IMG/VR virus record: IMGVR_UViG_3300047409_000283
Span: 1-50,293 of that record
Length of the DNA: 50,293 nucleotides
Strand: one strand, 5' to 3'
Source: a virus
Lineage: Duplodnaviria; Caudoviricetes
The notes beneath the pieces are model-generated. The model was not told the DNA's origin. It worked only from the letters and a program-made list of their open reading frames with translations, and did no database searches. Of this stretch, positions 1 through 50,293 are shown piece by piece. How positions within the stretch are numbered: position 1 is the first letter of the stretch; each line of letters opens with the position of its first letter. Both the position numbers and the translations under genes were made by a program.

Positions 1-163
1 TTGCTACCTCAGTGACGATCACGCCGACGACGACCGCGAACGGCGATTTGCTGCTGGTCTATGCCGCATCTGGCACAAACAATAGCTTCCAGTTTTACGG
101 CACCTATCCACAACAACTCGTTTCTGGAACCTCTGGCGGTTACGCCTCAGATTCGATGTTCTT
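1..163. repeat. Left copy of 163-bp terminal direct repeat (circular genome overlap)
   Basis: Identical to 50131-50293 except C37 vs T50167. Confidence 0.97.
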
Positions 164-1271
164 TGTCAATCTCGGACTCGCTGGGGCACAGTCTTACACT
201 CAGGTTTACAACACGATAGCCTCAGGCGGGCCAGTGGCAAAGTGGGCGGTCCTCGCCTTAGCCTTCAAGCCTTCTGCAATTTCTGTGACTTCCGACGCTC
301 TGCCGCATGGAGCCCAGGGTACGGCGTACAAAGCCTGCTTGTCAGGCGTCGGGGGTGCAGGTGCTTACACTTTTGCGGTTACCGGCCTTCCCGGCTGGGC
401 GTCGCTCAACACATCTACTGGTTGCATCACGGGAACGCCGAATGCGAACGGCACGACTGCCCTGAGCGCGACGGTGACAGACGGCACATTGACAAGCTCT
501 GCGCGATCTCTCAGTTTAGGAATCGGCTCATCATTTGGCACAATCACCCCGGTTCAGAACAACATCAATTCAGGAACATTCAGCAGCAACGTCACCAGCG
601 GCAATGTGATCTTGATGCAAAGCTGGGGGCCGGAGCAGTTTGGCTCTGACGTTTACGTTTGGTCAAGTGCAGGCCAAGGTGCGGTTAGTGATAGCCGAGG
701 GACAATATTTAAGCGCATTTTTCCTATCACCAAAGTACCGGGAACTGGGAACGGGGCGCCCAATGAACTCTATATCGGATGCCTAACTTCTTCTGGCGCT
801 AATACGGTCAGCATTCTTGGCAATACCCCAATAGCAGTTTCAGAATGGAGTGGCGCTCAATCAGTTGTAGATGATGGCACAAATGGAGCTTCGGCGGGAT
901 ATCCGTCAAGCCCGTTCAGTGTGACCACAGCCAACTATACGGCCCAAGTTGCGAACGAAACTCTCATCGCGACAGCCGCAGTCGGGAAATCGCTTCCGGG
1001 GGAAACCGCCGTCGTCAACGCACCGTTTACGACTCTCTATAGTGGAGCGATTGGGGGCACGTCGGAATTGTCTTTGCTTGGCTACGACCAAGTTACGACG
1101 GCAACGACATACACGGCAACAACTACAGTCACCGCAGCAGGCCAGTTCACAGGCAATGCCGTGGCTACCCAACTTGTTGGACTGCGTCAAGAAATCGCCG
1201 GTTTAGGCTGTGCTGGAACTATCCCACCTGTTGCGATTGCAGTACCACGTAAAAAAGGATGGGTATTTTGA
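1..1271 (+). CDS. 3' part of junction-spanning secreted virion-type protein with a putative Ig (He_PIG-like) domain; starts at 49710, about 563 aa in total
   Basis: ORF 12..1271 is in frame with ATG 49710 across the repeat; contains LPHGAQGTAY..LSGVGGAGAYTFAVTGLPGWASLNTSTGCITGTP, typical of He_PIG; Thr/Ser/Gly-rich. Confidence 0.85.
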   Translation, partial: ATSVTITPTTTANGDLLLVYAASGTNNSFQFYGTYPQQLVSGTSGGYASDSMFFVNLGLAGAQSYTQVYNTIASGGPVAKWAVLALAFKPSAISVTSDALPHGAQGTAYKACLSGVGGAGAYTFAVTGLPGWASLNTSTGCITGTPNANGTTALSATVTDGTLTSSARSLSLGIGSSFGTITPVQNNINSGTFSSNVTSGNVILMQSWGPEQFGSDVYVWSSAGQGAVSDSRGTIFKRIFPITKVPGTGNGAPNELYIGCLTSSGANTVSILGNTPIAVSEWSGAQSVVDDGTNGASAGYPSSPFSVTTANYTAQVANETLIATAAVGKSLPGETAVVNAPFTTLYSGAIGGTSELSLLGYDQVTTATTYTATTTVTAAGQFTGNAVATQLVGLRQEIAGLGCAGTIPPVAIAVPRKKGWVF

Positions 1272-2980
1272 TGCGACATAACAAACTGCTTATCCTTGTG
1301 TTGCTTTGGGCAACACTAACTACAGCACAGATGACCAGCGTCACTGCAACTGTCGTTGATCCCGCCGCGCAGCCTTACGCTAACGGGGTGTGGACAATTC
1401 AGTTCCATCCTAACGGTTTCGATCCTACGTTTTACAAACTCAACGGTGCGTCGTTTACACAGCAATACGCCGGAAGCTTCGACAACACCGGACTCTTAAC
1501 AGAGTCATTACCGGACAACTCAGTGATTACCCCTTCGGGATCGACGTGGGACTTCACGGTGTGCCCCAACGCATCAATGCCATGTACGACCATTAGCATT
1601 CCCGTGTCTGGCGTAAGCGAGGACGTCAGCACACAGATTAACACCGTGATCGCTGCGATTTCGATTAAACTTGATCCACAGCCCAATGCGCGTCCGTTGA
1701 CACGGGCGTACACCGACGCGGAAATCGCTAATCCCGTTCAGGCGGCGATGTATTACAATGTGACGGACAGTTGTATTCATAAGTACGACGGTACGACGTG
1801 GACTACAATCTGTGGTACCGGGGTTACGCCAGTGTTTACGTGTCCGGGTGCGATCAATGGAAGCGGAGCGTTTTTTACAAGTCCATCGTTGTTGGGTTGT
1901 GACAATTTAGTTTTGACGGATTTCTTGGGGCATCTTACGTCACAGTCGTGGACTGGCGTAGGGCCGCTGAACGGTGAGATGGCATTGACAACCATCGGGA
2001 TTACACCGTTAACAGCATTACCAGCTAATACGCTATCTATTATACCACCGAATGTAATCCCGACTCCGTACCGTACTAACTGGATGCCTGGGCCGTGCAC
2101 TGACGGTCAGGTGATTCAACAGCTTTCTCATGCTGTTGACGGTACCGGAACGATGAATATCTTCTTGAACTGTCTCACTCCCGGTGGTGGGGGAGGTGGC
2201 TCAATTACACTGGATACCAACGGTGTTGCTAACGCATCACAGGTGTTACTGAATCTAATCAACAGCGCGGCGACTAATGGTATCACACTTACAGTGACCA
2301 ACACCAGCGGTGGTATCGTGCAACTGGGTTTCACTGGAACTCTTAACAACTCTGGTCTTACGAATTCATCAGTGACATACAACGGTCAAACGGTCGCGCT
2401 CGGTGCGGCTGGGAACGTTAACGTCGGGGCGGCAACGCACTCGATTGCGCTGAATCAGGGTAATGGTAACGCCGTGACTGGTTTGGCAGCGGGAGCACAT
2501 CAAGTCGTAGTGGGCGTGGCCGGGGCTGACCCTGTTGCGAAAACGATGCCTGACTGTCAGGATACTGCTGGTAATCACTTGAACTTTACACAGTCTACGG
2601 ACACGTTTAACTGTGGTACGTCTGGTTATGTGTTACCGGGTCAGTACACTAAGTTACGCTGTGAAACAGGTTTAGGTGACGGTCTCAACGCGATGACCGC
2701 AGGAACGTATTTACAGTCGTTCTGTTACAACGATTCAGGCGTAACGTGGAATATCACGGGCTTGCGTTGTTTTACTGACAACAATGGTACATCGACGATG
2801 GCTGCAACCAACGGAGCCGGCACCGCGTTGTTGACGGGTGCTGTCACATGTACGACAGCTTTCGCGGCCGGAACCCAAAGCGCGACGACTACCATTGCCA
2901 ACGGTGATTTCATCAAGTTTACTTTTGTAGCTGACGCTACATCCAAGCAAACGACTTGGGTGGTGAGTATGACACAATGA
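1271..2980 (+). CDS. Secreted fibre-like/structural protein with signal peptide
   Basis: ATG overlaps upstream TGA (TGATG); MRHNKLLILVLLWATLTTA|Q signal peptide; Thr/Gly-rich, poly-Gly linker, many Cys. Confidence 0.75.
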   Translation: MRHNKLLILVLLWATLTTAQMTSVTATVVDPAAQPYANGVWTIQFHPNGFDPTFYKLNGASFTQQYAGSFDNTGLLTESLPDNSVITPSGSTWDFTVCPNASMPCTTISIPVSGVSEDVSTQINTVIAAISIKLDPQPNARPLTRAYTDAEIANPVQAAMYYNVTDSCIHKYDGTTWTTICGTGVTPVFTCPGAINGSGAFFTSPSLLGCDNLVLTDFLGHLTSQSWTGVGPLNGEMALTTIGITPLTALPANTLSIIPPNVIPTPYRTNWMPGPCTDGQVIQQLSHAVDGTGTMNIFLNCLTPGGGGGGSITLDTNGVANASQVLLNLINSAATNGITLTVTNTSGGIVQLGFTGTLNNSGLTNSSVTYNGQTVALGAAGNVNVGAATHSIALNQGNGNAVTGLAAGAHQVVVGVAGADPVAKTMPDCQDTAGNHLNFTQSTDTFNCGTSGYVLPGQYTKLRCETGLGDGLNAMTAGTYLQSFCYNDSGVTWNITGLRCFTDNNGTSTMAATNGAGTALLTGAVTCTTAFAAGTQSATTTIANGDFIKFTFVADATSKQTTWVVSMTQ

Positions 2981-5900
2981 GAAAAAATTACGTAACAACG
3001 CTACTGTTGACACTGACGCTTTGCATGATGTGTACAGCACAGACACCAACAATGCATGTCGTTGGTAAGTCAAAGGGTGTAGGACGAGCGAGCTTTAATG
3101 CCAGTCCGAATATCACCGTAACCTCACTTGTTGTAACACCAGTGAACCAACAACAGTTCGTTGGTTTTTCTGTGGGTTACACAGCGACGGTGAATCTATC
3201 AACGGGTGACACTGTTAACGTCACTCGATTTGCTACTTGGGTACCAAGCAATACCAACGTTGCGATTCTTGACACTCAAGTAGGAACGCAGAACATTAAG
3301 TGCATTTCGGCGGGGACTGTTATAGTTAAGGCTATCTATGGTGGATTAACTGATCAAGCATCACTGATGTGTAACTCTACGGTGCCACCGCCGCCGACAA
3401 TTCAGAGTGTCACACTCAGCCCGACGAATCCCAGTATTGCTGTGGGTACGTCACAGTTGTTCAGTGCCATTGGGCATTTCTCGGATGGGTCGAGTCAGGA
3501 CATTACATCGACGGCAACCTGGGCTACGTCTGATGCGACGATAGCTAAGAAGGGAGCTCTCGCAACGCAGCAAGATTTCGATTGCTTGAAGGCGGGAACA
3601 CCTGTTATTTCCGCGACGCAGAGCTCGTTTACTGGAACCACCAATTTGACGTGTGCTGCGGTACTCATCAGTGTTCACGTGACACCATTGACGTCGTCCA
3701 TTCTGGTTGCCAGTACACAGACCTATTTGGCGACGTGCGTTTTCAATGATGGGTCATCCAGTGATTGCACAACTCAAGCAACGTGGACTAGCTCTAATAC
3801 ATCAGTCGCGGTGATGACATTACCCCCCGTGTCACCAGAGCCAGCAACAGGGCTGACCGCTGGAACGGTAACAATCACTGCGACTATCGGAACTCTTTCT
3901 AGTAACACCACGCTAACGGTCAACAATCCCGGTCCGCCACCGCCGACGTTGGTTAGTGTCACGGTCAACCCAGTTAACCAAACCGTAAACGTGGGGAGCA
4001 CGCTGGATTACACCGCGACGTGCAACTATTCAGACGGCTCCACACAGGATTGCACCGCGGGTGCGACGTGGGCGTCAACCAGTCCGTCTGTAGCAACGAT
4101 TACATCGACGGGTGATCCGCGTACTGCGACTTGTTTGATAGCAGGTACGACCAGTTTGCACGCTACGTTTCAGGCTGTGTTGGGTACGACTAATCTGACG
4201 TGTCAAACACCCACACCAACCCTGTCTAGTATCGCTGTAACACCGGCTAATCAGACTGTAACGGTTGGATCGAAGATTAGTTACACGGCGACGTGTACTT
4301 ACTCGGATGGGTCAACGCAGAATTGCACACTGGCGTCACAGGGCACGACAACGGTGTGGACAAGCAACAACACCGGCGTTGCAACGATGGCCTCGCCGGC
4401 GACATCACCGGAGCCGGGTTCGTGTATTGCTGTAGGTGCTGTCACAGTGAAAGCACAAGTCAGTGCTACTTTTGGTACAACCACCCTGACATGTCAGAAT
4501 CCAACACAGCCCAATTTCGGAGTAGATGGTTACTGTCCGCCAACTAATATCCCGACGTGGGGCGTTAGTTATCACGGCGCGCTGTTTCCAACTACGTGTT
4601 ACAACACAGATCCATCTAGTACACCATCGACGGGCGCAGTACATGGGCCGGATTCGACGTTGGCTACAGTTCAAGCCGATCTCAATGCAGCAGCGTGCGG
4701 CGATGTAGTGGAGATCACCGCCGGTGTGACGTTGAGCGGAACTCTGATATGGCCAGCGAAGGTCTGCGACGCGTTGCATTATCTTACACTACGTGTACAT
4801 AACTTCGCGTCGGCGTTCCCGCCTTACGGCACGATACGTGGTGTCAGCCCATGTTATTGGGGTGTGGCGTCGTTACCAGGATATCCAGCGTTCAACTGCG
4901 TGCTGACGACAAATCGTGGGGTGACGATCCAATCAACGGGGACGAATTTCTCAATGCAAATGACCGGCCCCGCGGCGTTTGGTCGTATTGAAGGTATTAA
5001 ATTCACGCGCACGGCGGGTACTGGATTGGTGTCACGGATGATCAAATCCGAGATCCCCAACATGGATCACTTCGTTTTCGATAGTGATTGGTGCGCCAAC
5101 ACCGCGACGGATGAGATGCAGCGGTGTATGTTCTTTGATGGTTACAGCTACATCGCATGGGTGAATTTTCTTGTTACCGACATGCACTGTATCTCAATCT
5201 CAGGCCACTGCACCGCGAATCAAGGTTTCTCTGGTGGGCTGAACGGTTTCTCATCGACACCGGATCACACGTGGAAGATAGTCAATGGCTTCTTCACATC
5301 CGCCGATAATACGACAGTAGGTTGGGGCGGCGGTGGGGCTAACACCGTGCCATCAGACATTGAGATACGTCTAAACTGGGGTAAGAAATTGATGATCTGG
5401 AACCCCGGTTGCACCGTAGCTCTGTGTGGTGTCGCCTACAACGGAGGTGTCGGTGGTAATCCGTTTATCGCGAAGCAGTCGATGGAAACGAAGAACTCTG
5501 ACAAGATGTTCATTGAGGCCAATGTACTTGATGGCTCGTGGGCTGGGTTCTCGCAGGTCGGATCACATATACTGCTGACGCCCAAGAACCAAGCTATCAA
5601 CGGGAATAACATCTGTCCGTTGTGTTCGGTGACTAATAACATTATACGGTTCAACTTCCTGACGACGTCTAACAACTGTTTTCAAGTGGCTAACGTTGGA
5701 TCGGATGCAGGTGGCTACGCCGTTGCCGGAAACAGCTACGCGATTGATAACAATGTTTGTGAGAACACCAACTATCCAGGATGCTATAAGTGCTCAACGA
5801 ATTCGGGCGGAGCACTTGACGGTGGTGATCTGTCAGTTACGAGTCCGTTGTCTCCGGTGGGTTTCATCCTGCATGACGTCTTTGTGAACCACAACGCCTA

Positions 5901-6387
5901 CATTCCAAACGGTTCGGCGTTCAAGATGGGTGGATTGCTTGGTGTATCGGGTGGATTGGCATCCAACTCACGACAAATGTTTAACTTCACTTGGACCAAT
6001 AACATTGGGCCGAAAGAGGGTCTGGCTATAAATAATCCATCAGATGGCTGTTCACAGAAACCAACCACGAATTGTTATTGCGGTAACTCGACGCCGAAGG
6101 CGATTCTCGATGCCTGTTTTGGAACCACTGGTTATACATTCGGTGGTAACGCTTTTGTTGCTAATGGGACTACGTCGTGGCCTGGCTCGAATTGTACTGC
6201 TGAATTATCGCAGTCTAGTATTTACGTGAACTACAACAACGGTACTAACGGCCCGCAGAATGTACTGAACTATCGAGTAAAGACAACCAGTGCATGTCAC
6301 AACGCTGGTAATGATGGACTTGATCCAGGGCCAGATGTGACCACGTTGAACAATCGAATTTTCAGTGGTAAGGTGGCTCAATTTTAA
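2977..6387 (+). CDS. Secreted protein with five Big_2-like Ig repeats and a C-terminal probable right-handed beta-helix (glycan-binding or depolymerase-like)
   Basis: ATGA overlap; signal peptide MRKNYVTTLLLTLTLCMMCTA|Q; five repeats of SI.VTP....VG....YTATC.YSDGS.QDCT..ATW.S; Asn/Gly-rich C-terminal half. Confidence 0.8.
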   Translation: MRKNYVTTLLLTLTLCMMCTAQTPTMHVVGKSKGVGRASFNASPNITVTSLVVTPVNQQQFVGFSVGYTATVNLSTGDTVNVTRFATWVPSNTNVAILDTQVGTQNIKCISAGTVIVKAIYGGLTDQASLMCNSTVPPPPTIQSVTLSPTNPSIAVGTSQLFSAIGHFSDGSSQDITSTATWATSDATIAKKGALATQQDFDCLKAGTPVISATQSSFTGTTNLTCAAVLISVHVTPLTSSILVASTQTYLATCVFNDGSSSDCTTQATWTSSNTSVAVMTLPPVSPEPATGLTAGTVTITATIGTLSSNTTLTVNNPGPPPPTLVSVTVNPVNQTVNVGSTLDYTATCNYSDGSTQDCTAGATWASTSPSVATITSTGDPRTATCLIAGTTSLHATFQAVLGTTNLTCQTPTPTLSSIAVTPANQTVTVGSKISYTATCTYSDGSTQNCTLASQGTTTVWTSNNTGVATMASPATSPEPGSCIAVGAVTVKAQVSATFGTTTLTCQNPTQPNFGVDGYCPPTNIPTWGVSYHGALFPTTCYNTDPSSTPSTGAVHGPDSTLATVQADLNAAACGDVVEITAGVTLSGTLIWPAKVCDALHYLTLRVHNFASAFPPYGTIRGVSPCYWGVASLPGYPAFNCVLTTNRGVTIQSTGTNFSMQMTGPAAFGRIEGIKFTRTAGTGLVSRMIKSEIPNMDHFVFDSDWCANTATDEMQRCMFFDGYSYIAWVNFLVTDMHCISISGHCTANQGFSGGLNGFSSTPDHTWKIVNGFFTSADNTTVGWGGGGANTVPSDIEIRLNWGKKLMIWNPGCTVALCGVAYNGGVGGNPFIAKQSMETKNSDKMFIEANVLDGSWAGFSQVGSHILLTPKNQAINGNNICPLCSVTNNIIRFNFLTTSNNCFQVANVGSDAGGYAVAGNSYAIDNNVCENTNYPGCYKCSTNSGGALDGGDLSVTSPLSPVGFILHDVFVNHNAYIPNGSAFKMGGLLGVSGGLASNSRQMFNFTWTNNIGPKEGLAINNPSDGCSQKPTTNCYCGNSTPKAILDACFGTTGYTFGGNAFVANGTTSWPGSNCTAELSQSSIYVNYNNGTNGPQNVLNYRVKTTSACHNAGNDGLDPGPDVTTLNNRIFSGKVAQF

Positions 6388-6941: not shown

Positions 6942-8636
6942 TTGGAAGTCTTTACACCACTGCCGATCGCTGGGTTGCCGCCCGACAAGGCGTTACGTGC
7001 GCTGCGTCTGAACAGTCTTGGATCATTGTTCTATTTCATCAAGATTGGGCTGCGTCGACATCGTCTTACGGAAGGTCTGCATCTGCCGTTCTGTCGCACG
7101 CTGGAACGTGAACACATCAAAGATGTCATTGAGATGCCACGCGATCATTTCAAGTCAACATGTGCTAGCGAAGGTTTACCGATGTGGCGCACACTGCCGC
7201 TATCGCAGCAGGACTTGGATGAGTTTGCTGCGCTAGGGTACTCGAAAGAGTTTATTCGCTGGATACAACGTTCACACAATCCTGATTTACGTAACATCCT
7301 AGTAGCCGAGAATATCACGAACGCAGCGAAGCTGGGTCGACGCATCCGGTGGCACTTCGAAAGCAACGCGTTGTATCGCACGTTGTTTCCTGAGACGCTT
7401 CCTGATTCGTCGTCCACGTGGACTGATTTCTCGCTGCATACGAAGCGTCCGAGCGCCGGGATGGGCGGCGCGCATGGTGAGGGTACGTTTGACTTCATGG
7501 GCGTTGGAAGTGCACTGCAATCACGTCACTACAATGGTATGTGTATTCAAGACGACTTGGTTGGCCGTAAAGCGGTTGAGTCGCAGTCTATTATGGACAA
7601 GACGATTGAATACCATCAACTACTGGCGAACGCGACTGAGTCAGAAGACAACACATATGAGTGTGATGAGCTTGTAGTAGGCAATCGCTGGTCGTATAAC
7701 GACCTGAACTCGCATCTACGTGAGCACGAACCAGACTTTCGTTTTGAGTCCCACTCAGCAATGGGCGGCTGCTGTAACATACATCCAATTGACACACCAA
7801 TCTTTCCGGAGGAGTTCAGCTTTGAAAAGTTGGAGAAACGTCGTCGCCGTCTGGGCAGTTTTAACTATAGTTGTCAGTTTCTTAACAATCCTTCTGCACC
7901 AGAGAACGCCGATTTTAGAGTGGACTGGTTGCAGTATTTTAGTGTGGTGTACGATCCTGCTGGAAACGGTAAGTGGAAGATCGTCCACGAAGTGAAAGAT
8001 GGCATCGTGTTACCGGACATCAATCGGTCGGTGTTGAGCATCGCTATGACCGTTGATCCAAACCATTCGGGTAACGCTGCGATGGGACGGTGTCGTCACG
8101 CGATTGAGGTGCTAGCGCAGAGCGACAAAGGTAACTACTATTTGCTGGAGTCGTGGGCACAGGCCGCGTCGTATGATGCGTTCTACGCGAAGATCTTCGA
8201 GATCGCGACGAAGTGGGGTCTACATCGGATCGGCGTGGAAACGATTGCCGCGCAACGTTACATCAAACATCACCTGGAGTATCTGGCGACGCAGAAGGCG
8301 TTTCGTTTGCAGATTGATGAACTCAAGGGCGAGGTCGAGGCGCCAGACGGAACGCTATCGCGGCGTAAGGAATGGCGTATTCGCAACGTCATAGGCCCGA
8401 TCGCTGAGCGCGGCCAGTTGTTTGTACAACGACGACAGGTGGATTTCATCAATGAGTACCAAACATTTCCGAAAGGAAAGTACGTTGACCAGCTTGACGC
8501 TTTTGCGTATGCTCCGCAATTGGTACGTAAGCCGATAGATGAGGCAACGCATTACGACATGTTACAGGCGTATAACGACCGAATGAAAGAAGTCAGCAAA
8601 CCATACTCGTATGGTTATGGAGGTGCTCGTGCTTAA
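6942..8636 (+). CDS. terL: Terminase large subunit
   Basis: Walker A-like MPRDHFKST, Walker B CIQDD, coupling motif VVGNRW, RNase H-like nuclease TVDP...DQLDA; upstream of portal. Confidence 0.92.
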   Translation: MEVFTPLPIAGLPPDKALRALRLNSLGSLFYFIKIGLRRHRLTEGLHLPFCRTLEREHIKDVIEMPRDHFKSTCASEGLPMWRTLPLSQQDLDEFAALGYSKEFIRWIQRSHNPDLRNILVAENITNAAKLGRRIRWHFESNALYRTLFPETLPDSSSTWTDFSLHTKRPSAGMGGAHGEGTFDFMGVGSALQSRHYNGMCIQDDLVGRKAVESQSIMDKTIEYHQLLANATESEDNTYECDELVVGNRWSYNDLNSHLREHEPDFRFESHSAMGGCCNIHPIDTPIFPEEFSFEKLEKRRRRLGSFNYSCQFLNNPSAPENADFRVDWLQYFSVVYDPAGNGKWKIVHEVKDGIVLPDINRSVLSIAMTVDPNHSGNAAMGRCRHAIEVLAQSDKGNYYLLESWAQAASYDAFYAKIFEIATKWGLHRIGVETIAAQRYIKHHLEYLATQKAFRLQIDELKGEVEAPDGTLSRRKEWRIRNVIGPIAERGQLFVQRRQVDFINEYQTFPKGKYVDQLDAFAYAPQLVRKPIDEATHYDMLQAYNDRMKEVSKPYSYGYGGARA

Positions 8637-9063
8637 ACGTAAGACCACTGCTGCGTTGACCGTTATAGTGATTGCTTTGTCACTGTGCGGTTTTGGATGT
8701 CCACACGGAACACAGAATCTTGCGACAGCATCGGACGCGATTGCACACAGCTTGGTGAACGCGCAAGCTGCTGCTCGGCAAGCTGAAATGCAAGGTGTTA
8801 TCTCAAAGGAGGATGAACAACAGTTTGAGATGTTCGTTGTCAAGGTGGCACAGGCTGGGCTTGCGCTTGACAAAGGCATCCGCGCGAATGAGTCCGCAAC
8901 AACGTTGTCAACGAAAGTCAACTCGTTCCTGGACGCCTTCAATCAACTCAACACCACCGGGTTGTTGTTTGTTAAAGACCCCAACCTGAGGGTAACGATC
9001 TCTACGATCATAACAGGCGCTGAGACTTCTGTAGCCATCATCGCCGCGACTGTGGGGAAATGA
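8629..9063 (+). CDS. Putative lipoprotein
   Basis: GGAGG RBS before GTG; basic N-terminus KRK, hydrophobic core, then LCGFG|C lipobox-like site; helical mature part. Confidence 0.6.
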   Translation: MLKRKTTAALTVIVIALSLCGFGCPHGTQNLATASDAIAHSLVNAQAAARQAEMQGVISKEDEQQFEMFVVKVAQAGLALDKGIRANESATTLSTKVNSFLDAFNQLNTTGLLFVKDPNLRVTISTIITGAETSVAIIAATVGK

Positions 9064-14366: not shown

Positions 14367-15059
14367 ATGAAGCGATGTCTTGCTTTGGTAACACTGGTGT
14401 TGGCGCTGTGTTTGGGTGTCAGCGCACAGAACACGTTTACTCAGGCTGGTGTGCTGAGTGCGTCGGGTGCGGTGGCAAACGGCGGTGCGTTTGAGAACTC
14501 GGTAGCACAAACGCATATCTTGACGTGGACGGATGTCGCAACTGTATCGGCTTGCACGGTGCAGTTGGAGACGTCTACGGATGACGTGACGTACACCTTG
14601 ATGACCGGCTCTGCCGCTCAGACGTGTACGTCTTCGGGGTTCTACAACTTTTCAGGTGTTGCTGCTAAGTACGTTAGGGTGAATTTCACTGCTCTGACGG
14701 TATCTGGCAGCGGTACAGTGTCGTGGACTTACAGTGCTTTACCCGCTTCGACGAAGTCGTCCGGAACACCTTATGTGTCGTTCTGCGGCGCGACGTCTGG
14801 CGGTACGGCGAACTGTGCCAATGTCAATCCTGGAACAAACGCTCACATCATTGGGGGCTCGGCTACGTTAGCGTCGAACGCTTCGGTGATTACGTTTGCG
14901 CCGGGATTCACTAGCACAGCGACGTTTACGTGTGTCGGTAACGACATCACAACGCGGGCTAACCCAGTGCAGGTGGCGCTGACGTCGGCTACATCGGTGA
15001 CCATCACGAACACCACGGGTGCGTCTGACGTCATCCAATGGGTGTGCGTCGGGTACTAA
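14367..15059 (+). CDS. Secreted capsid-associated fibre/decoration candidate
   Basis: GAGGAG RBS; signal peptide MKRCLALVTLVLALCLGVSA|Q; N-domain similar to that of 47893..49710; C-terminal ITFAPGFTS...C...V....TSVTIT....DVIQWVCVG fibre-tip-like pattern. Confidence 0.75.
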   Translation: MKRCLALVTLVLALCLGVSAQNTFTQAGVLSASGAVANGGAFENSVAQTHILTWTDVATVSACTVQLETSTDDVTYTLMTGSAAQTCTSSGFYNFSGVAAKYVRVNFTALTVSGSGTVSWTYSALPASTKSSGTPYVSFCGATSGGTANCANVNPGTNAHIIGGSATLASNASVITFAPGFTSTATFTCVGNDITTRANPVQVALTSATSVTITNTTGASDVIQWVCVGY

Positions 15060-16303: not shown

Positions 16304-17567
16304 GATCGTCTCGGAGACAGCAGATGGAATCGGATTCGCAGTGCGACTCAAAAACGCCGGTCACAGGGTTTCATGTTGGATACGTTCTACAGACGCGAAA
16401 AGCGTTGGGGATCGGCTCGTTGACAAAAGGGGCGACATTGACGATCTGGTTAGAGACATCTCAGATGGGGATGTGTTTCTCTTCGACGTCTCCGGGAACG
16501 GCCTTATCGCAGACGCTTTGCGTGAACGCGGATGCGCTGTCCTCGGTGGGTCAGGCTTAATGGATCGACTGGAACGCGATCGTGACTTCGGTTATGCCGT
16601 GATGGAGGAGTGCAAAATTGATGTACCTCAAACAGAGAGTTTTAACTCCTTCGCAGATGGCATTGATTTTGTGGAGTCGAATCCGGACGTCAGATGGGTC
16701 TACAAACCCTCGAAGCAGTTGGGTGACCTTTCGCCTAGCCACGTTTCATATGACACGGAGGACATGGTTCAGTTACTCACAAACATCGAGCAGGATGTGG
16801 ATATAAGTGATCCACAGTTTGAGTTGCAAGCCTTTGAAAAAGGTGTGGCGATGTCTACAGAGCTATGGTTTCAGAATGGTGAGTTCATAGCTCCGTTGAC
16901 CAATCACACGTTGGAACGCAAAGAGCTCATGAATGATGACCTAGGGCCGAGCGGAGGTTGTTTGGGGAACATCGTCTGGCTATGCGATGGATGTCCCATT
17001 TGTGATGTCGCGAAACGATTAGTACCGTGGTGCGAACAGCATCGTTATCATGGGATGTTGGATCTCAATGTTATCGTAGCCAAAGATACTGTGTATGGGT
17101 TGGAGTTCACCCCACGGTTTGGTTATGACGCTTCGCCAACATTCTTGATGGAGTTGGTACGGGGTGACCTAGGTGATTTCTTCAGCGATATAGCAAACAG
17201 TCGGCTGCGTGATGTTGACACTATTGATGACGCTTACGCTGGTGCAGTACGCGTCACGATACCGCCGTGGCCGACTGAAAAGTATCACGCTGAGGAAAAC
17301 GTACCGATCCGTGGCCTTGCGGCGAAAGACAAAGATGTGTATCTGTACAACGTGAAAGCCGACAAGGATAACGAGTTGGTCAGCGCCGGCGCGTGGGGTA
17401 TTCTGGCGTTGTTGACACATCGCGCGGGCACGGTGAACGGCGCGTTACGCGGCCCGCTGGAACGTTGTAAGGAACTGAAGATTAAGAACAAACAGTTCCG
17501 GACGGATTTGGCAACACAGTTCAATGCTGATCTAGCGAAGCTGGAGGTAATGAATGCCGTTTACTAA
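16281..17567 (+). CDS. PurD (GAR synthetase)-like ATP-grasp ligase
   Basis: LGGS..MDRLERDR.F, VYKP, K.LMNDDLGPSGGCLG (cf. PurD GD.GPNTGGMG), GMLDLN, LEFTPRFG (cf. EFN.RFG); start could be 16281 or 16293. Confidence 0.8.
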   Translation: MTKSMHFKIVSETADGIGFAVRLKNAGHRVSCWIRSTDAKSVGDRLVDKRGDIDDLVRDISDGDVFLFDVSGNGLIADALRERGCAVLGGSGLMDRLERDRDFGYAVMEECKIDVPQTESFNSFADGIDFVESNPDVRWVYKPSKQLGDLSPSHVSYDTEDMVQLLTNIEQDVDISDPQFELQAFEKGVAMSTELWFQNGEFIAPLTNHTLERKELMNDDLGPSGGCLGNIVWLCDGCPICDVAKRLVPWCEQHRYHGMLDLNVIVAKDTVYGLEFTPRFGYDASPTFLMELVRGDLGDFFSDIANSRLRDVDTIDDAYAGAVRVTIPPWPTEKYHAEENVPIRGLAAKDKDVYLYNVKADKDNELVSAGAWGILALLTHRAGTVNGALRGPLERCKELKIKNKQFRTDLATQFNADLAKLEVMNAVY

Positions 17568-18261
17568 TCTTTGGGATGATACGTTTCCGCCGGATACACA
17601 GCTTGCCAACCAACTGGGTCTGGACTTGCGTAACTTCCGTCTCGACGCACAACAGCGCATGGCTGCGATCAGTGGACTGGATGCAGCGAAGCCAGCGTTC
17701 GGTGCCGACACACAACCAGCGAACTGGAATGGTATTCTGTTCTTTGCGACGGACACTGGGAAGATCTATCAGTTTGCCAATCCGGTGTGGGTGGATGTCA
17801 CTGGAAGTTTCCAGATCAGTGGTACACGAAAAGTGTATCAAAATGCTACCTTAATCAATCATCTAGGTACTACTACACTTGATACGATTTATAATTTCGC
17901 GTTTACTCCTCTAGGAGCAGGTCAGTCATTGAGGGTCAAGTTTGCTTTTCGTGTTAATGGTCAGTCTGCACCGAGTAGTGAAGTTCAACTGTTTATGAAT
18001 GGTACCGCGTTGAATTTGGCTATTGAAAGTTGGGGGTCTCCACAACTAAATACAACAATTCAGATAGAGGTTTTAGTGTGTGCAAGCACTCCTACAACGG
18101 CAATGATGTTGTTAAAGATGGATTTCCAAACCGGGCCTCCAATTATAGTGGTAAGTTCAGCACCAAACGGTGGAGGTTATCCGAATTTCACAGTGAAATG
18201 TAAGAGTGGTACTAATACTGATGCACAGGGGTTTGGCCCGATTCTAGCAGAGGTCGTCTAA
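17554..18261 (+). CDS. Tail-associated/short fibre-like protein
   Basis: GGAGG RBS; N-terminal WDDTFP...LGLDLRNF, GILFFATDTGKIY; AT-rich 3' half. Confidence 0.55.
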   Translation: MPFTNLWDDTFPPDTQLANQLGLDLRNFRLDAQQRMAAISGLDAAKPAFGADTQPANWNGILFFATDTGKIYQFANPVWVDVTGSFQISGTRKVYQNATLINHLGTTTLDTIYNFAFTPLGAGQSLRVKFAFRVNGQSAPSSEVQLFMNGTALNLAIESWGSPQLNTTIQIEVLVCASTPTTAMMLLKMDFQTGPPIIVVSSAPNGGGYPNFTVKCKSGTNTDAQGFGPILAEVV

Positions 18262-20993: not shown

Positions 20994-21746
20994 GTGTGGC
21001 CTGTGGTAATGAAAACATCGTTCCTGATTAGTGATCTCGTTAACGAGGTCATCCTGCGTGTTGAGAATCGCATTACGGACACCGAGCGCGCGGCTATCTG
21101 GTTGCGTGACGCGTTGCTTGAGATCAGCGGCAATCCAGACTATCGTGATGACTTCGACCAGTTGGAAGTGCTTGGGCCGTTGTTCAATTTGACGGCTGGT
21201 GTACAGGAATTTCCGTTCAGTGGCTTGGTGCCGCCACAGGCGTTGCCTTTACAGTCGGGATATAACATGTCCACATTGGATATCTTCTTGTGGACTGATT
21301 ATCCGTTGAACACACTACGTCGAAAGCTCAACCCAACTAACTATCAAGACGCTGACAAGTTTCAACAAGCCGTGTCCATTCCGACGGAGTGGTATCGTTT
21401 TGCGGACACAGTGGGATTCAACCCTCGTCCTAATCAACCATATCAAGTGCAAGCTCGCATCATGCAGGAGCATCCCATTGATGATGACAACTTGCCGACA
21501 ACTCAGATCCTGTTGCCTCGTGAATGGAACGAAGTGCTTATCTATGCCGCTGTGATGCGAGCGTATACCGAGCTACTTGAGTACGAGAAGGCACAGCAGA
21601 TTCGAGTGTTCCTGCAAGGTGACCCGAAGTTCCCTGGTAAGTCCGGTCTCGTGGAAGCTATTAAGAAACGTCGCAAGCGTGAAGCATGGCGTCAAGAGCA
21701 GCCGCTTCGTCCTGTAATCAGAGGTTACAGTTGGGGCTCGTCATAA
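20994..21746 (+). CDS. Head-tail adaptor/tail tubular A-like protein
   Basis: LTAGVQEF, PT.WY, NP.PNQ.Y, LP.EW.EVLIYAA...A....EYEKA pattern of adaptor proteins; start may be 21009. Confidence 0.7.
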   Translation: MWPVVMKTSFLISDLVNEVILRVENRITDTERAAIWLRDALLEISGNPDYRDDFDQLEVLGPLFNLTAGVQEFPFSGLVPPQALPLQSGYNMSTLDIFLWTDYPLNTLRRKLNPTNYQDADKFQQAVSIPTEWYRFADTVGFNPRPNQPYQVQARIMQEHPIDDDNLPTTQILLPREWNEVLIYAAVMRAYTELLEYEKAQQIRVFLQGDPKFPGKSGLVEAIKKRRKREAWRQEQPLRPVIRGYSWGSS

Positions 21747-40970: not shown

Positions 40971-40973
40971 ATT

Positions 40974-41399: not shown

Positions 41400-41423
41400 T
41401 TGCTTTTTATCTCCTTGTTGTTA

Positions 41424-42161: not shown

Positions 42162-42372
42162 CGTTGTCCTCCTGAACACGATGTAGTTGTTTATTGTGTA
42201 AGTGATATGCTTGTCCACACTTGGGACACTCAAACTGAGCGGTCATCTGTGACTCGTGTAGCTCGCCGGGCACGCGTTCCGTCCAGCGTGTACCACACTT
42301 GCAGATGAATGCGATGGTCTGCATCTTACGTGTGTCGCAAAGCACGGTGATCACATTAAGTGGCTTGTCCAT
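42085..42372 (-). CDS. Zinc-ribbon protein
   Basis: AAGGAGG RBS; FICKCG...FECPKCG. Confidence 0.6.
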   Translation of the reverse strand: MDKPLNVITVLCDTRKMQTIAFICKCGTRWTERVPGELHESQMTAQFECPKCGQAYHLHNKQLHRVQEDNDARQDSSNSKQPFAAIQSNKSRFDA

Positions 42373-46068: not shown

Positions 46069-46097
46069 TTGACTCTGGCACCTCCTTATTATATGCT
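46069..46097 (+). promoter_or_regulatory. Sigma70-type promoter for the structural arm
   Basis: TTGACT-N17-TATGCT. Confidence 0.75.
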
Positions 46098-46257
46098 CGG
46101 AAGCGAGTGTACACGGGCGCGGGGCGCGGCACTGGACGGGCATCCAGATAGGCCGCGCCCACTGGCGTCAGAGGCACAAATGCACATTAACGGATTTAAA
46201 ATCAACATTGAGATCGAAGATCTGCATATCAGGATCAAGGATCTCCGAGGACATATC

Positions 46258-46602
46258 ATGGCACAGGTAACTGGAACTTTCACTGTCACCGTCAACCCAG
46301 CAGGCCCACCTCCGAATCCACTGGCGTTGACACCGCCGGGCGGTTCGCTTCCCGCGGAAACTGTTGGCGTTCCTGTCACGGACGCTGTTACGACGATAAG
46401 CGGCGGTCAGGCACCGTACACGTTGGCGATCACCGCGGGCGCGTTGCCCGACGGCGTATCGCTGGCACAGGCACAGAATCCCGACGGAAGTGTGTTGATC
46501 TCCTTGAGTGGCGCGCCAACTGCACCCGGAGCGTTTAGCTTCGACTTGCAGGTGACGGACGCTGGTGGTGCGTCGGCAACAGGGTCATTCGCGAGGGGCT
46601 AA
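46258..46602 (+). CDS. Single putative Ig (He_PIG-like) domain protein; alternative start 46180
   Basis: GAGGA RBS; LP..TVG.P......SGG.APY....AG.LP.G.SL.....SG.PT..G.FSF...VTD. Confidence 0.75.
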   Translation: MAQVTGTFTVTVNPAGPPPNPLALTPPGGSLPAETVGVPVTDAVTTISGGQAPYTLAITAGALPDGVSLAQAQNPDGSVLISLSGAPTAPGAFSFDLQVTDAGGASATGSFARG

Positions 46603-46603
46603 C

Positions 46604-47080
46604 TTGAACCGTCAGGTTTGGATCAAAGCCGAGCAAATAGCCCGAATGGTCGTCAAGGGCATCTCCTATACCCGCATCGCGGTTGAAATGGGGATGTCCT
46701 ATGACGGCTTGATACGTATCACACGGCAGCCTGAGTACCTGCGGGTGGAGGAGTCCGTCCGCGCGCAGGTGACAGGTAAAATGGACGCACGTCTGGCAAA
46801 GCGGGCGGAGATGGAAGACCAGCTCGAAGATGCCATTCCCGAGGCCATGAAAGTCCTCCTGGACTCGGTCACCAAAAAACGCGATCTACGTGCGGCACTG
46901 GAACTGATGGATCGCGACCCACAACGTCAATTCGCAAAGGGTAACACCCAACGCGCCGTGCAGCCTTCCCCGTCATTACCACAGGACATTTTGCAAAGCA
47001 CTGTCGCCGCAGCGGACGCCGCGCGCGACCAGATCACCCGTCTACCGGCGGATTCGAAACCAATCTCAGATCTAAATTAG
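46604..47080 (+). CDS. HTH DNA-binding protein, putative terminase small subunit
   Basis: GAGGGG RBS before TTG; N-terminal HTH (GISYTRIAVEMGMS), AIPEAM.VL.D....DLRAA.ELMDR helix pair. Confidence 0.6.
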   Translation: MNRQVWIKAEQIARMVVKGISYTRIAVEMGMSYDGLIRITRQPEYLRVEESVRAQVTGKMDARLAKRAEMEDQLEDAIPEAMKVLLDSVTKKRDLRAALELMDRDPQRQFAKGNTQRAVQPSPSLPQDILQSTVAAADAARDQITRLPADSKPISDLN

Positions 47081-47604: not shown

Positions 47605-47883
47605 ATGGCAAACCGTATCGCAGGCCGCCCGTGGGTGCTCGACACAGCAACACCCGGCGTGGCCATTTGGCCCTCGTGGATGAAGATCGCGCACTTCGAG
47701 TACACTGGATACGCCGCGCAGGGCAATCTTGCCATCATCAACGACAAAAATGGTCAGTTAGTTTGGCAAGCCACCGGTGCATTTGACCTCTCTGATCAAG
47801 ACTCGTTCAAGATCGGGTGGGTACAGGGTCTCATCCCGCAACAGATCGATGGCGGCGGTAAGGTTATTGTTTACATCGAATAG
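47605..47883 (+). CDS. Hypothetical small beta-rich virion-type protein
   Basis: AAGGA RBS; ends GKVIVYIE. Confidence 0.6.
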   Translation: MANRIAGRPWVLDTATPGVAIWPSWMKIAHFEYTGYAAQGNLAIINDKNGQLVWQATGAFDLSDQDSFKIGWVQGLIPQQIDGGGKVIVYIE

Positions 47884-47892
47884 GAGTACATC

Positions 47893-49710
47893 ATGAAACG
47901 CTGGCTCGGGAGAGGTCGGTGGTGGATTGTTGTACTCCTTTCGTCGTTGTGCGTCGCACAGGCGTATAACGCTTATCGCACGATTACGATGTCGGCACCC
48001 GCATCTGACATTACCATCCCTGAGAACACCGTAATACAGTACCATCAACTGTCGTGGACTAAGACAGGCACCGTAAGCACCTGTACCGTTGCTTTGGATT
48101 CGTCTACTGACGGCACAACGTGGTCAGCGGGCGGTATCATAACGGGTCAAACCTGTACCAGTAACGGTAACAGTGCTATCACTGCCGGAAGCGCGAATTA
48201 CATCCGTATCACGGCGACCGCGCTAAGCGGTGGTGGCTCTGTGCAGTTCATTTACAAGGGATGGGTTGCTAATCCATCTGGTAGCGTCGCGTTACCTGTA
48301 AGCGTTGCTAACGGTGGGACTGGATCGGCAACAGGGTTCACGTCTGCTGGTGTTATTGCTTTGTTTACAGGATGTTCTGGAACACAGTATTTGGGTGCTG
48401 ATGGAGCGTGCCATACATCGAGTTCTGCTGTCGCAAGTGTGTTCGGACGCATCGGTGCGGTAGTCGCTGCGTCGGCTGATTATTCTGTCGCGCAAGTGAC
48501 GGGTGCCGCTCCATTGGCTTCTCCTACCTTCACAGGCACTCCCGCTGCTCCCACTCCGGCGGCAAGCGACAATTCTACGACCATCCCAACTACAGCATAT
48601 GTAACTACGGCGATTGCGAATGCGGTGGCAGGCGTCAACCCTGCCGTAGCGGTCAGGGTAGCCACTACGGGAGTGTTGCCGAACTCGCCTACGTATAACA
48701 ACGGTGTAGGCGGAATCGGGGCCACGCTGACCACCGCGACCACGAACACAGCACTCGTAGTGGACGGAGTGACGCTGGGATTAAACGACCGAGTTCTAGT
48801 AAAGAACCAAGCCTCTAGTTTTCAGAATGGCGTGTACTTTCTCAGTCAGCTTCAAGGTGTCGCACTAGCATGGATACTGACTCGTGCGCTTGATTTTGAT
48901 ACGCCGTCGGACATGAACAACACGGGAGCCATCCCGGTGATTAGCGGGACAGTGAATACGACGACGCAATGGGTCATTAGTTCTGCGGTGACGACCGTAG
49001 GGACGGACGCGGTGACATTCGCGCAATTCTCCAGCAATCCAGCTAACTTGGTTACGGCGGTGTCTCCGGGCGCGGGCATCGCGCATTTTGCAGGCTCAAC
49101 TCAAGCCGTAACTAGTAGCCCGATTGTAGCGGCGGACATTACCAGCGGCACCATCACCACGACGCAACTTGCAGCCGCCGCAACACCTGCAATGGTGCAG
49201 CTTGAAACTCATACTGCCTCCGGTTCTACTACGGTGGACTTCACAAACGCTGCGCTAGTTGGCTCTACCTATCACGTGTTTAAGTTCGTTTTTACCAACG
49301 TGCTTCCGGCTAGCGCTGGAGTTCTGCAACTCTTGGTAGGCACGGGCGGCGGCCCGACTTACTCGAACACTGGCTATAGCTACGGAGGTAATCTTTTCAA
49401 CTCAGGCGGCACTGGCGCCTTTGGATTAACCAACCAGACCACGATGCAGTTGTCCGGTAACGGCGTACTTGCCACGGCCGCACTCGGCGGCGTATCGGGC
49501 GAATTGATTCTCTATACTCCACAGGCCGGAGCGACCGTGAACGTCAACGTGACTGGCGGGTTTGGCTATTTTGCCTCTGGCACCAATCCCACGTATTCGG
49601 TGGTGGTTGGCAGTTGGACGGCGAGCGCGGCAGTGACGGCTGTTCGCTTCCAGTTCCCATCCATCAACACGACTAGCGGCACGATCACGATGTACGGAAT
49701 CACGCCTTAA
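47893..49710 (+). CDS. Tail fibre-type protein carrying a signal peptide
   Basis: AGGAG RBS; MKRWLGRGRWWIVVLLSSLCVA|Q; fibre motifs VANGGTG, VASVFGR.G.V, APLASPTFTGTP.APT...TTAYV, DRVLVKNQ...QNGVY...LTRA.DFD. Confidence 0.82.
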   Translation: MKRWLGRGRWWIVVLLSSLCVAQAYNAYRTITMSAPASDITIPENTVIQYHQLSWTKTGTVSTCTVALDSSTDGTTWSAGGIITGQTCTSNGNSAITAGSANYIRITATALSGGGSVQFIYKGWVANPSGSVALPVSVANGGTGSATGFTSAGVIALFTGCSGTQYLGADGACHTSSSAVASVFGRIGAVVAASADYSVAQVTGAAPLASPTFTGTPAAPTPAASDNSTTIPTTAYVTTAIANAVAGVNPAVAVRVATTGVLPNSPTYNNGVGGIGATLTTATTNTALVVDGVTLGLNDRVLVKNQASSFQNGVYFLSQLQGVALAWILTRALDFDTPSDMNNTGAIPVISGTVNTTTQWVISSAVTTVGTDAVTFAQFSSNPANLVTAVSPGAGIAHFAGSTQAVTSSPIVAADITSGTITTTQLAAAATPAMVQLETHTASGSTTVDFTNAALVGSTYHVFKFVFTNVLPASAGVLQLLVGTGGGPTYSNTGYSYGGNLFNSGGTGAFGLTNQTTMQLSGNGVLATAALGGVSGELILYTPQAGATVNVNVTGGFGYFASGTNPTYSVVVGSWTASAAVTAVRFQFPSINTTSGTITMYGITP

Positions 49711-50293
49711 TGAGACGCTGGCTAGTTATCGCGTTGCTCTGTCTTCCCTGCTTCGGGCAGTCGAACGCCTTTCGGCCTAGTATCGTCCAGTCGTTCCAGG
49801 CCGAGAACTTCGCCGGAGGCTCACCAACTCCATTCCAAGACAACGTCACCATTAATAACCTGATCGTTGTCGGCTTCCATTGGCAGACCGCACCTTCAAC
49901 CACCGCCTCAATCTCAGACACGTTGAGCACTTCGTTCACCTGCTCAGCACCATTTGTAGCTGATGCTTTCGATCTGACGATTGAGATGTGTTACGGAATC
50001 GCGCCATCATCTGGAGCAGACTCGATAACTGTCTCCGGCCTGACAGGGCACCATGCAAACATGGTGATCTCTGAATTTACCAACGTTTCTGGGACGGTGG
50101 ACGTAACCACCACAGGAAACGGAACACCTTTTGCTACCTCAGTGACGATCACGCCGACGACGACCGTGAACGGCGATTTGCTGCTGGTCTATGCCGCATC
50201 TGGCACAAACAATAGCTTCCAGTTTTACGGCACCTATCCACAACAACTCGTTTCTGGAACCTCTGGCGGTTACGCCTCAGATTCGATGTTCTT
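49710..50293 (+). CDS. 5' part of junction-spanning secreted protein (continues at position 164)
   Basis: TAATG coupling; MRRWLVIALLCLPCFG|Q signal peptide; open frame to window end, in frame with 12..1271. Confidence 0.85.
   Translation, partial: MRRWLVIALLCLPCFGQSNAFRPSIVQSFQAENFAGGSPTPFQDNVTINNLIVVGFHWQTAPSTTASISDTLSTSFTCSAPFVADAFDLTIEMCYGIAPSSGADSITVSGLTGHHANMVISEFTNVSGTVDVTTTGNGTPFATSVTITPTTTVNGDLLLVYAASGTNNSFQFYGTYPQQLVSGTSGGYASDSMF
50131..50293. repeat. Right copy of 163-bp terminal direct repeat
   Basis: Matches 1-163. Confidence 0.97.

Follow-up and report, generated by a model that had tools for sequence, protein, structure and literature searches.

A cassette of cysteine-paired, fibre-like and Ig-domain proteins with predicted export leaders in the structural region of a short-tailed phage

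Introduction

The assembly of tailed phages is held to be an entirely cytoplasmic process, and this bars them from using disulfide-stabilised modules. What, then, are fibre-like, cysteine-rich proteins with apparent signal peptides doing in the structural region of a tailed-phage genome? The question is raised by five genes, here called gpA to gpE, of the soil-phage genome deposited as IMG/VR record IMGVR_UViG_3300047409_000283, the whole 50,293 nucleotides (nt) of which constitute the window analysed here. A first-pass annotation of the window had singled out these genes and suggested that their products are exported, folded with disulfide bonds in the periplasm, and then either attached to virions during or after lysis or displayed on the surface of the infected cell. 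We find that the five genes very probably encode true Sec-type secretory proteins, as judged from the make-up of their leaders, the conservation of the locus and the pattern of their cysteines. As to the role of the exported proteins, our preferred reading, to which we assign a probability of about 0.45, is that they form a cassette of exported cargo acting in trans on host polysaccharide.

Results

Predicted leaders and their conservation

Four of the genes, gpA to gpD, sit between a small-terminase-like (TerS-like) gene and the large terminase gene and run across the ends of the record. Lengths are in amino acids (aa); Ig stands for immunoglobulin.

gpA, 47893..49710, plus strand: 605 aa; leader of about 22-24 aa, A-type N-domain, fibre shaft and central domain, C-terminal tip.
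gpB, first part, 49710..50293, plus strand: leader of about 16-18 aa and N-domain; continues at window position 164, after the repeat.
gpB, second part, 1..1271, plus strand: He_PIG Ig domain; C-terminal tail that has a basic cluster and ends in Phe.
Terminal repeat, 50131..50293, no strand: assembly overlap of a circular or terminally redundant genome.
gpC, 1259..2980, plus strand: 569-573 aa (ATG at 1259 or 1271); leader, C-type N-domain, tip shared with fibres.
gpD, 2977..6387, plus strand: 1136 aa; leader, Big_2/Lig-like Ig repeats, C-terminal half of about 600 aa.
gpE, 14367..15059, plus strand: 230 aa; leader, A-type N-domain, Cys-rich C-terminal part.

The gene positions of the first-pass annotation proved correct, including the course of gpB across the junction and the place of gpE right after the major capsid gene. 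So did the coupling of the four cassette genes, whose stop-to-start overlaps measure 1 nt at 49710, 1 nt at 1271 (13 nt from the start at 1259) and 4 nt at 2977; the summed length of the five proteins is 3,103 aa, where about 3,100 had been estimated. The open reading frame (ORF) of gpD opens at a TTG at 2956, and it is the ATG at 2977 that yields the leader; the leader ATGs of gpA and gpE are preceded by GGAG-type ribosome-binding motifs. The record represents a complete phage genome, rated 100% complete by the collection. Its bases 50131-50293 duplicate bases 1-163 with one mismatch, and this 163-nt terminal repeat implies a circularly closed assembly of about 50,130 bp in which gpB is one gene of 563 aa across the contig end. 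At gpB residue 153 the mismatch turns Ala into Val, and it suggests a population variant; the closure point falls inside a gene, and the collection labels the record 'linear' despite its circular closure.

All five N-termini begin with one to four Lys or Arg residues, continue into an uncharged core of 11-17 residues with a mean Kyte-Doolittle hydropathy of at least 1.9, and lead to a small residue (Ala or Gly) immediately before a Gln (5/5 proteins). The basic n-region, hydrophobic h-region and small-residue cleavage site originally described for them are thus present throughout, as called by a rule-based scan of our own in which the boundary of the mature protein is approximate. A cruder scan, run over every ORF of 80 aa or more, picked out six: gpA, gpC and gpE, plus three ORFs that are short and overlapping. 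gpD, read there from the TTG start, escaped it, and later scans flagged gpB, split at the contig end, and the ORF at 8611-9063. Other classes of N-terminal signal were considered. Lipoproteins were rejected: inspection by eye found no lipobox ([LVI][ASTVI][GAS]C) in the five leaders, and such Cys as occur within leaders are not in a lipobox context. Signal-arrest-release (SAR) anchors were rejected as well, the cores being rich in Leu, Val and Ile, with small-residue sites after them, and not in Gly and Ala. gpB and some relatives have a twin-arginine start, M-R-R, and others open with K-R, K-K or just one K; at 16-24 aa the leaders are short, and the even Cys counts described below would favour folding after export over the twin-arginine translocation (Tat) route. 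Pfam and NCBIfam searches found no C-terminal domain of the type IX secretion system (T9SS) or other sorting domain, and no C-terminus is common to the leader proteins.

Searches with the terminase yielded 11 related contigs in IMG/VR, with identities of 61-86%, and one contig from a metagenome-assembled genome (MAG). In these relatives the interval from the helix-turn-helix (HTH) gene to the portal gene holds one to four variable genes, nearly all with similar leaders. When ORFs of at least 150 aa are counted over the window and nine related contigs, leaders occur in 21 of the 32 ORFs lying between the TerS-like gene and the portal gene, as against 1 of 67 elsewhere (Fisher p = 1.5e-12), and the sole leader ORF outside the interval is gpE. 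This count omits L005 and L009, near duplicates of L011 and L008, together with three ORFs open at the 5' end, and two leaders escaped it (L008:2557 and L012:6867) that were recognised by eye or from later starts. The gene order is the same in L012 and in G001, a complete, syntenic relative of 50,181 bp which has only two leader genes and lacks gpE. Leaders are thus kept at the same locus in related phages, which bears out the signal peptides of the first-pass annotation.

Cysteine parity and the residue after the leader

Even numbers of Cys are associated with exported proteins. The mature forms of gpA, gpB, gpC, gpD and gpE contain 4, 6, 14, 38 and 6 Cys, respectively, all even counts and in keeping with the paired Cys noted at first pass. 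Thirty leader proteins were counted, drawn from the window, from its relatives and from three phages unrelated to it: 29 have an even number of Cys in the mature form, one has zero and none has an odd number. A similar trend separates the best 120 gpA homologues, 55 of which have leaders (48 with even, 6 with odd and 1 with zero Cys) while 65 are leaderless (26 even, 20 odd, 19 zero; Fisher p = 4.5e-4); Cys accounts for 1.19% of residues with a leader versus 0.46% without, a 2.6-fold difference. The 55/65 split requires the hydrophobic core to start within 15 residues (57 of 120 are flagged without this limit), and the homologue lists favour sequences with shared words and comprise the best-scoring entries only. 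Within the window, 17 leaderless structural proteins average 0.72% Cys, versus 0.7-3.4% in the five leader proteins.

Individual Cys pairs follow the leaders as well. In the A-type N-domain, a beta-rich domain of about 105 aa, the pair C64/C88 (gpA numbering) is invariant in 6/6 sequences, and the C-type N-domain keeps a Cys pair in its five leader-bearing members. The only leaderless member of the C-type family, encoded at L002:649-1611 in a close relative, has both conserved Cys replaced, a natural pairing of leader loss with disulfide loss. The residue after the leader is also distinctive: of the 56 gpA homologues with leaders, 39 have Gln as the first polar residue beyond the core, where 18% would be expected (p = 6e-17), and a small residue precedes that Gln in 38 of the 39. 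These sites resemble the Q-rule, a Gln at +1 of signal peptidase I substrates that has been described as specific to Bacteroidetes (PMC5837995); Acidobacteria are mentioned 0 times in that paper.

Cys parity, covariation and the Gln site, three lines of evidence that are independent of the leader itself, make export and periplasmic oxidation the natural reading, and together they strongly support export and oxidative folding of the five proteins. That part of the original inference stands, on the strength of the leaders, the conserved locus, the Gln and the paired Cys; the other part, attachment to virions, is weakened by the phage's own leaderless fibre, the four different N-domains and the variability of the cassette, all described below. 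One might object that the N-termini are not working export signals but uncleaved membrane tethers, mis-called starts or hydrophobic assembly elements of cytoplasmic proteins. The leaders do rest on a rule-based scan, one orthologue (in L002) is leaderless, and the start codons of gpC and gpD are ambiguous. Yet both alternative starts still contain the leader, positive charge precedes the hydrophobic core, a small residue followed by Gln recurs in 5/5 window proteins, Cys numbers are even in 29/30 cases and odd in 0, loss of the leader accompanies loss of the Cys pair, and bacterial gpD homologues bear leaders or lipoboxes. We consider this explanation very improbable indeed.

Domains of the five proteins and the probable host

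By its homologies, gpA is a mosaic fibre. It matches 10 PHROG families, four of them tail fibre, and its residues 232-403 are homologous to residues 245-411 of orf22, the tail fibre of Legionella phage LME-1 (PDB 9EFK; E = 2.3e-22), so that the tail-fibre motifs first reported for one of the five are well founded. LME-1 is described as a T7-like short-tailed phage with six fibre trimers, the trimer contacting adaptor and nozzle (PMC12407071). The match is confined to the 245-411 segment of orf22, whereas gpA starts with its leader and an unrelated Cys-paired domain. More generally, no tail-binding N-terminal domain was found in the leader proteins: the PDB alignment misses the fibre N-terminus, and a leader stands there instead. 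Among 8,000 candidates examined, 1,728 proteins are related to gpA at E <= 0.001, and these relatives have shafts and tips in common, with or without leaders. Against cultured phages the fibre central domain shows 30-45% identity, and in 16 records most of the matched genes are annotated as tail fibre. The N-domain of gpC is common to leader proteins of the relatives, and its C-terminal tip recurs in fibre proteins (P0028 is an example) in which the central domain of gpA is present too. The A-type N-domain of gpE is 42% identical to that of gpA. In all, the five leader proteins have four unrelated N-terminal domains.

The Ig domains noted at first pass are found in gpB and gpD, and both score above the gathering cutoffs: He_PIG in gpB at E = 1.1e-7 (32.6 bits, cutoff 24), and Big_2 in gpD at 43.8 bits (cutoff 22.8) in three stretches, with Lig-like Ig repeats also found in a PDB search. 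The gpB family is small (19 matches), with clear leaders in 5 of 6 homologues retrieved. Its C-terminus (window 1150-1271; P0397-P0406) has a Pro-rich stretch, a basic cluster and, in 5/6, a final aromatic residue, and this tail could be an unrecognised sorting signal. The beta-helix fold of the first-pass annotation fared less simply: gpD itself has no Pfam hit to it, and the assignment is indirect, 5 of the 23 aligned members of the family of its C-terminal half matching the Beta_helix family PF13229 (best E = 1.1e-6).

Among the best 120 homologues of this C-terminal half, 92 were flagged as leader-bearing, some of lipobox type, on contigs of up to megabase size. The gpD-family profile finds 550 relatives in reference genomes, and 76 of the best 80 loci belong to Acidobacteriota, among them Terriglobia, Acidobacteriaceae and Sulfotelmatobacter, with several copies in some genomes. 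The domain thus appears (L118-L197) as a multi-copy Terriglobia family of secreted proteins or lipoproteins, and on one contig three loci lie within about 35 kb. The C-terminal half of gpD belongs to this chromosomal family of secreted, probably beta-helix proteins, and looks host-derived.

This origin raises the possibility that the cassette is a host-benefit or metabolic cargo (auxiliary metabolic genes or morons), made up of host-derived secreted polysaccharide degraders or binders that would nourish the infected cell or alter its lifestyle, with no part in phage spread. Beyond the multi-copy chromosomal family of the gpD half, one might cite a survey of soil prophages in which, as reported, 5% of carbohydrate-active enzymes (CAZymes) have signal peptides, tail fibres having been excluded (PMC13507307). 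We find the idea quite improbable, for the genes are translationally coupled in a late operon, with promoter and terminator signals of their own not above chance, gpA and gpC are phage fibre modules and not metabolic enzymes, and no integrase was found among the 10 large early-strand proteins scanned. Promoter- and terminator-like sites around the cassette occur at chance level only, and the scans thus give no information on transcription.

The presence of the beta-helix half of gpD in a Terriglobia chromosomal family of secreted proteins also suggests a host. GGAG-type ribosome-binding motifs precede many genes of the window, and Bacteroidetes rarely use such motifs. The motifs point to a host outside the Bacteroidetes, despite the Q-rule-like Gln sites, and together with the distribution of the gpD family they indicate, indirectly, that the host is probably a Terriglobia acidobacterium, a diderm. 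Two other routes to the host were abandoned. The terminase gave one match, on a 9.5-kb contig in a Candidatus Eisenbacteria MAG, treated as possible mis-binning; the fibre domain gave none in a first genome scan and 17 taxonomically scattered, uninformative loci in a profile scan.

Neighbouring genes and the tail

Whether the exported proteins are virion parts depends in part on what else the phage encodes. The relevant genes are the following.

x92, 47605..47883, plus strand: leaderless, 92 aa; adjoins the leader cassette in the relatives that hold it.
HTH protein, 46565..47080, plus strand: 171 aa, conserved; upstream edge of the cassette.
Large terminase, 6942..8636, plus strand: phrog_38, E = 5e-52; downstream edge of the cassette.
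150-aa protein, 8611..9063, plus strand: N-terminal hydrophobic leader or anchor, between terminase and portal.
Major capsid gene, 13372-14322: directly before gpE.
Leaderless tail-fibre candidate, 17554..18261, plus strand: 235 aa, 2 Cys; in the tail module.
Tail adaptor (SU10_adaptor), 20994..21746, plus strand: leaderless, 0 Cys.

The portal gene has a near-threshold SU10_portal match, and a replication block on the opposite strand encodes a family-A polymerase, a uracil-DNA glycosylase (UDG)-exonuclease, a DUF3987 protein (primase/helicase-type), a methylase and an FtsK-like ATPase. Terminase, portal, capsid, SU10-type adaptor and replication genes together identify a short-tailed, SU10/T7-like phage; its terminase is less than 28% identical to that of any deposited phage, and cultured relatives are distant. 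From its position, the HTH protein may be the small terminase. The 8611..9063 product may be a lysis or envelope protein.

The phage has a fibre candidate of ordinary type. The N-terminus of the leaderless protein at 17554-18261 is conserved (over about 150 aa in G001 and about 90 aa in L004) and its C-terminus is divergent; the L004 orthologue matches 17 PHROG families, nine of them 'tail fiber protein'. Its tip has no similarity to any leader protein, and in BLAST comparisons no leader protein resembles its N-terminal anchor. PDB sequence searches with this fibre and with a 510-aa tail protein gave chance-level matches only. With this fibre, the adaptor and other tail genes present, the cassette is not needed for a complete tail. 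Its content also varies: relatives carry one to four cassette genes, including some for proteins of 156-167 aa and one for an outer-membrane-protein (OMP)-like protein, and G001 dispenses with gpE as well as with two of the four genes of the cassette. The OMP-like case is a 167-aa leader protein between terminase and portal (L008:5560-6063; the same gene lies at L009:2636-3139) whose end, with its final Phe, is outer-membrane-barrel-like.

The small x92 gene is a constant neighbour of the cassette (L002:408-680; L003:2134-2418; L007:2919-3206; L010:5820-6086; L011:5601-5894; L012:635-919), and adjoins it even in the rearranged L010. The protein has no Pfam, PHROG, NCBIfam or PDB match. The thought that it might be a detached fibre anchor was unsupported: a large HMMER search returned a family of 563 representative clusters, nearly all stand-alone and of about 90 aa, with only 2-3 fused forms.

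Several other genes deserve mention. In the tail module, directly before the leaderless fibre, a 435-aa protein (16260-17567; 61% conserved in G001) resembles phosphoribosylamine-glycine ligase, an ATP-grasp enzyme unexpected among tail genes (PDB 2ip4, E = 8e-6). A leaderless 127-aa protein with a Tlde1 domain (15559-15942; L,D-transpeptidase-like; Pfam E = 1.5e-13, phrog_24118 E = 1e-46) may be a cell-wall enzyme of the lysis system. Directly upstream of the HTH gene lies a leaderless 177-aa protein with a He_PIG Ig domain (46069-46602; E = 2.6e-7), a counterpart with Ig fold from the same region that would belong to the cytoplasmic side. On the minus strand, the early region includes an FtsK/SpoIIIE-family ATPase and a von Willebrand A protein (39819-42233), and a ParB-N-methylase fusion is encoded at 31995-33503. 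A temperate lifestyle was rejected, no integrase having been found among the same 10 large early-strand proteins, a part of the gene set, and no tRNA gene in the genome. A diversity-generating retroelement target was rejected in turn, since no reverse transcriptase was found among the subset of proteins scanned.

Leader-bearing fibres in other phages

When IMG/VR was searched with a profile built on the central domain of the fibre, 80 loci came up, with identities of 33-67%; just three of these fibres start with a true leader, and their mature forms contain 36, 8 and 8 Cys. The statement that fibres normally lack leaders therefore holds for these homologues. In the myovirus L038 the leader-bearing fibre lies between head-completion genes and the sheath gene, and in the P22-like podoviruses L041 and L059 it follows the ejection proteins, beside further leader genes. 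Leader-bearing fibres are thus confined to particular lineages, yet they occur in at least three phage architectures, all within structural blocks.

Such positions invite the idea of an extracytoplasmic finishing of virions, in which fibres and spike folded in the periplasm would dock through their N-domains onto particles at or just after lysis. The five products would then be Sec-routed, disulfide-bonded receptor-binding fibres and a spike, mounted once the inner membrane opens, and x92 or the short leaderless fibre could provide the docking site. The late structural operons of three lineages (the SU10/T7-like group, the P22-like L041/L059 and the myovirus L038), the genuine fibre modules of gpA and gpC, the two N-domain types conserved ahead of variable distal parts, and the attachment of leaderless x92 to the cassette even in L010 all agree with it, as does gpD being the only depolymerase-like protein. 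The leaderless, Cys-free version in L002 adds that the C-type N-domain can also work in the cytoplasm. Nevertheless, a leader stands in for the end that would bind the tail, each of the four unrelated N-domains would require a docking site of its own, and a leaderless fibre is already present in the tail module. The cassette, moreover, encodes small proteins, one that is OMP-like, and secreted proteins of host origin; gpE is missing in close relatives such as G001; and docking would be confined to the brief interval before dilution at lysis. As no tailed-phage precedent was found in the literature searched either, we hold this explanation to be unlikely, though the likeliest of the alternatives.

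The exported fibres might instead remain in the periplasm or on the cell surface, where they could mask or bind receptors, and so exclude superinfecting phages and shield progeny from debris, or could tie the infected cell to nearby host cells. Since their tips are common to leaderless virion fibres, an exported copy could bind the same receptor. A signal peptide, then a conserved beta-rich N-domain, then a fibre with a variable tip is also the layout stated for all 21 MAT proteins of a predatory bacterium (PMC10769870); a relative encodes an OMP-like leader protein between terminase and portal; and signal-peptide genes of Porphyromonas gingivalis phages have been proposed to modify the outer membrane (PMC10367356). 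Set against this are the failure to find any membrane anchor, lipobox, T9SS or other sorting signal in the five proteins, and the tip of the phage's own leaderless fibre, which is unlike that of any leader protein. For a lytic phage, as the 10 scanned early-strand proteins without an integrase suggest this one to be, late exclusion would bring little gain. We therefore view display on the envelope as unlikely.

Discussion

The leaders, the conservation of their locus, the parity and covariation of Cys and the homologies are directly established. How could they be accounted for by our preferred reading, an exported-cargo cassette acting in trans on host polysaccharide? The five genes would probably be expressed together with the structural genes, and their products would cross the inner membrane unfolded. 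Signal peptidase I would cut the leader just before the Gln, and the proteins would fold with disulfide bonds in the periplasm of the diderm host, probably a Terriglobia acidobacterium. Folding outside the cytoplasm means that they would not be built into the particle in the cytoplasm; the virion-fibre role would be filled instead by the leaderless fibre of the tail module. The cassette would then consist of stable, lectin-like fibres and a polysaccharide-cleaving spike which, released at lysis or earlier via host secretion, would act in trans on the polysaccharide coat and matrix of the host, and could remove or mask that layer near the cell that bursts and near its neighbours. We propose that Cys-paired modules, of which some are host-derived, cannot fold in the reducing cytoplasm and that the leader is kept for this reason.

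Several observations weigh against this proposal. The leader-bearing fibres of L041 and L059 occupy the slot expected of a receptor-binding protein, which favours a virion role; gpA and gpC are composed of shaft and tip modules that ordinary virion fibres also have; and N-domains conserved among relatives ahead of varying distal parts are the pattern of docked receptor-binding proteins. Since the only depolymerase-like protein, gpD, has a leader, a virion without gpD would lack a capsule-crossing enzyme. The enzymatic role of gpD is itself putative, the match of its family profile to PL6 alginate lyase being weak (E = 0.012). A route across the outer membrane was not found, nor a sorting domain in Pfam or NCBIfam, and the parity statistics treat related sequences as independent. 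Finally, export, cleavage and disulfide bonds are features that we infer from sequence, and late expression and action in trans are conclusions of the same kind.

That phages can encode envelope proteins which bear a signal peptide and change the cell surface or obstruct receptors is familiar from the lambda Lom and Bor and T5 Llp proteins. These are small single proteins, often expressed from a prophage, unlike the present multi-gene late cassette of about 3,100 aa composed in part of fibre modules. Sec-exported or SAR endolysins, such as Lys44 of Oenococcus phage fOg44, provide examples of late tailed-phage proteins that have true signal peptides and collect outside the cytoplasm before lysis (PMC6116005). 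They are lysis enzymes, and none of the five proteins has a lysin domain. The prophages of P. gingivalis carry five functionally uncharacterised genes with Q-rule signal peptides (PMC10367356), a similar case of phage-encoded Sec leaders exposing an N-terminal Gln, which has been read as an adaptation to host secretion. Those, though, are temperate Bacteroidetes phages, whereas the proteins described here have fibre, Ig and beta-helix modules, range from 230 to 1136 aa and come from a phage with a probable Terriglobia host.

The closest architectural match is found outside phages, in the MAT fibres of Bdellovibrio bacteriovorus, which are described as combining a signal peptide and a beta-rich N-domain of about 130 aa with a phage-like trimeric fibre and swappable tips (PMC10769870). 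The likeness is one of layout, not of sequence comparison, and the N-domain compares with about 105 aa for the A-type domain here. The MAT proteins show that fibres made by the secretory route are possible in a diderm; they are, however, chromosomal and serve the predator's own surface, whereas the present genes belong to a tailed phage's late operon and are known from sequence alone. As for gpD, an activity of the kind proposed is that of WceF of Pantoea stewartii, an exported, tailspike-like beta-helix glycanase that acts on its producer's own exopolysaccharide (PMC7949094), a likeness by description. WceF is bacterial and has a Tat signal, and is thus exported folded, in contrast to the short, Sec-like leaders and the Cys parity seen here, which speak for folding after export.

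In a literature search mostly at title and abstract depth, with supplementary tables (e.g. those of PMC10367356) outside its scope, we found no report of signal peptides on tailed-phage fibres. The first-pass annotation had called the genes its best candidate for an undescribed system; this appears apt for leader-bearing fibres, and goes too far for phage-encoded exported proteins in general, which are known. Finishing of particles outside the cytoplasm, if true, would be categorically new and would change the textbook picture of phage assembly. Whichever role applies, there appears to be a class of late proteins, fibre- and spike-like, that is produced through the secretory route and not in the cytoplasm, and it makes up about half of the best 120 relatives of this fibre. 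It follows for genome annotation that the "tail fiber" labels applied by pipelines may overstate virion content, and that tools for predicting receptor-binding proteins and hosts should weigh leaders and Cys parity; the Gln-after-leader signature, outside the Bacteroidetes, is a useful clue to the host. If the proteins do act in trans, phages of a dominant soil phylum would release hardy lectins and enzymes that reshape the matrix around their hosts, with a bearing on soil carbon turnover, biofilm structure and the spread of phages.

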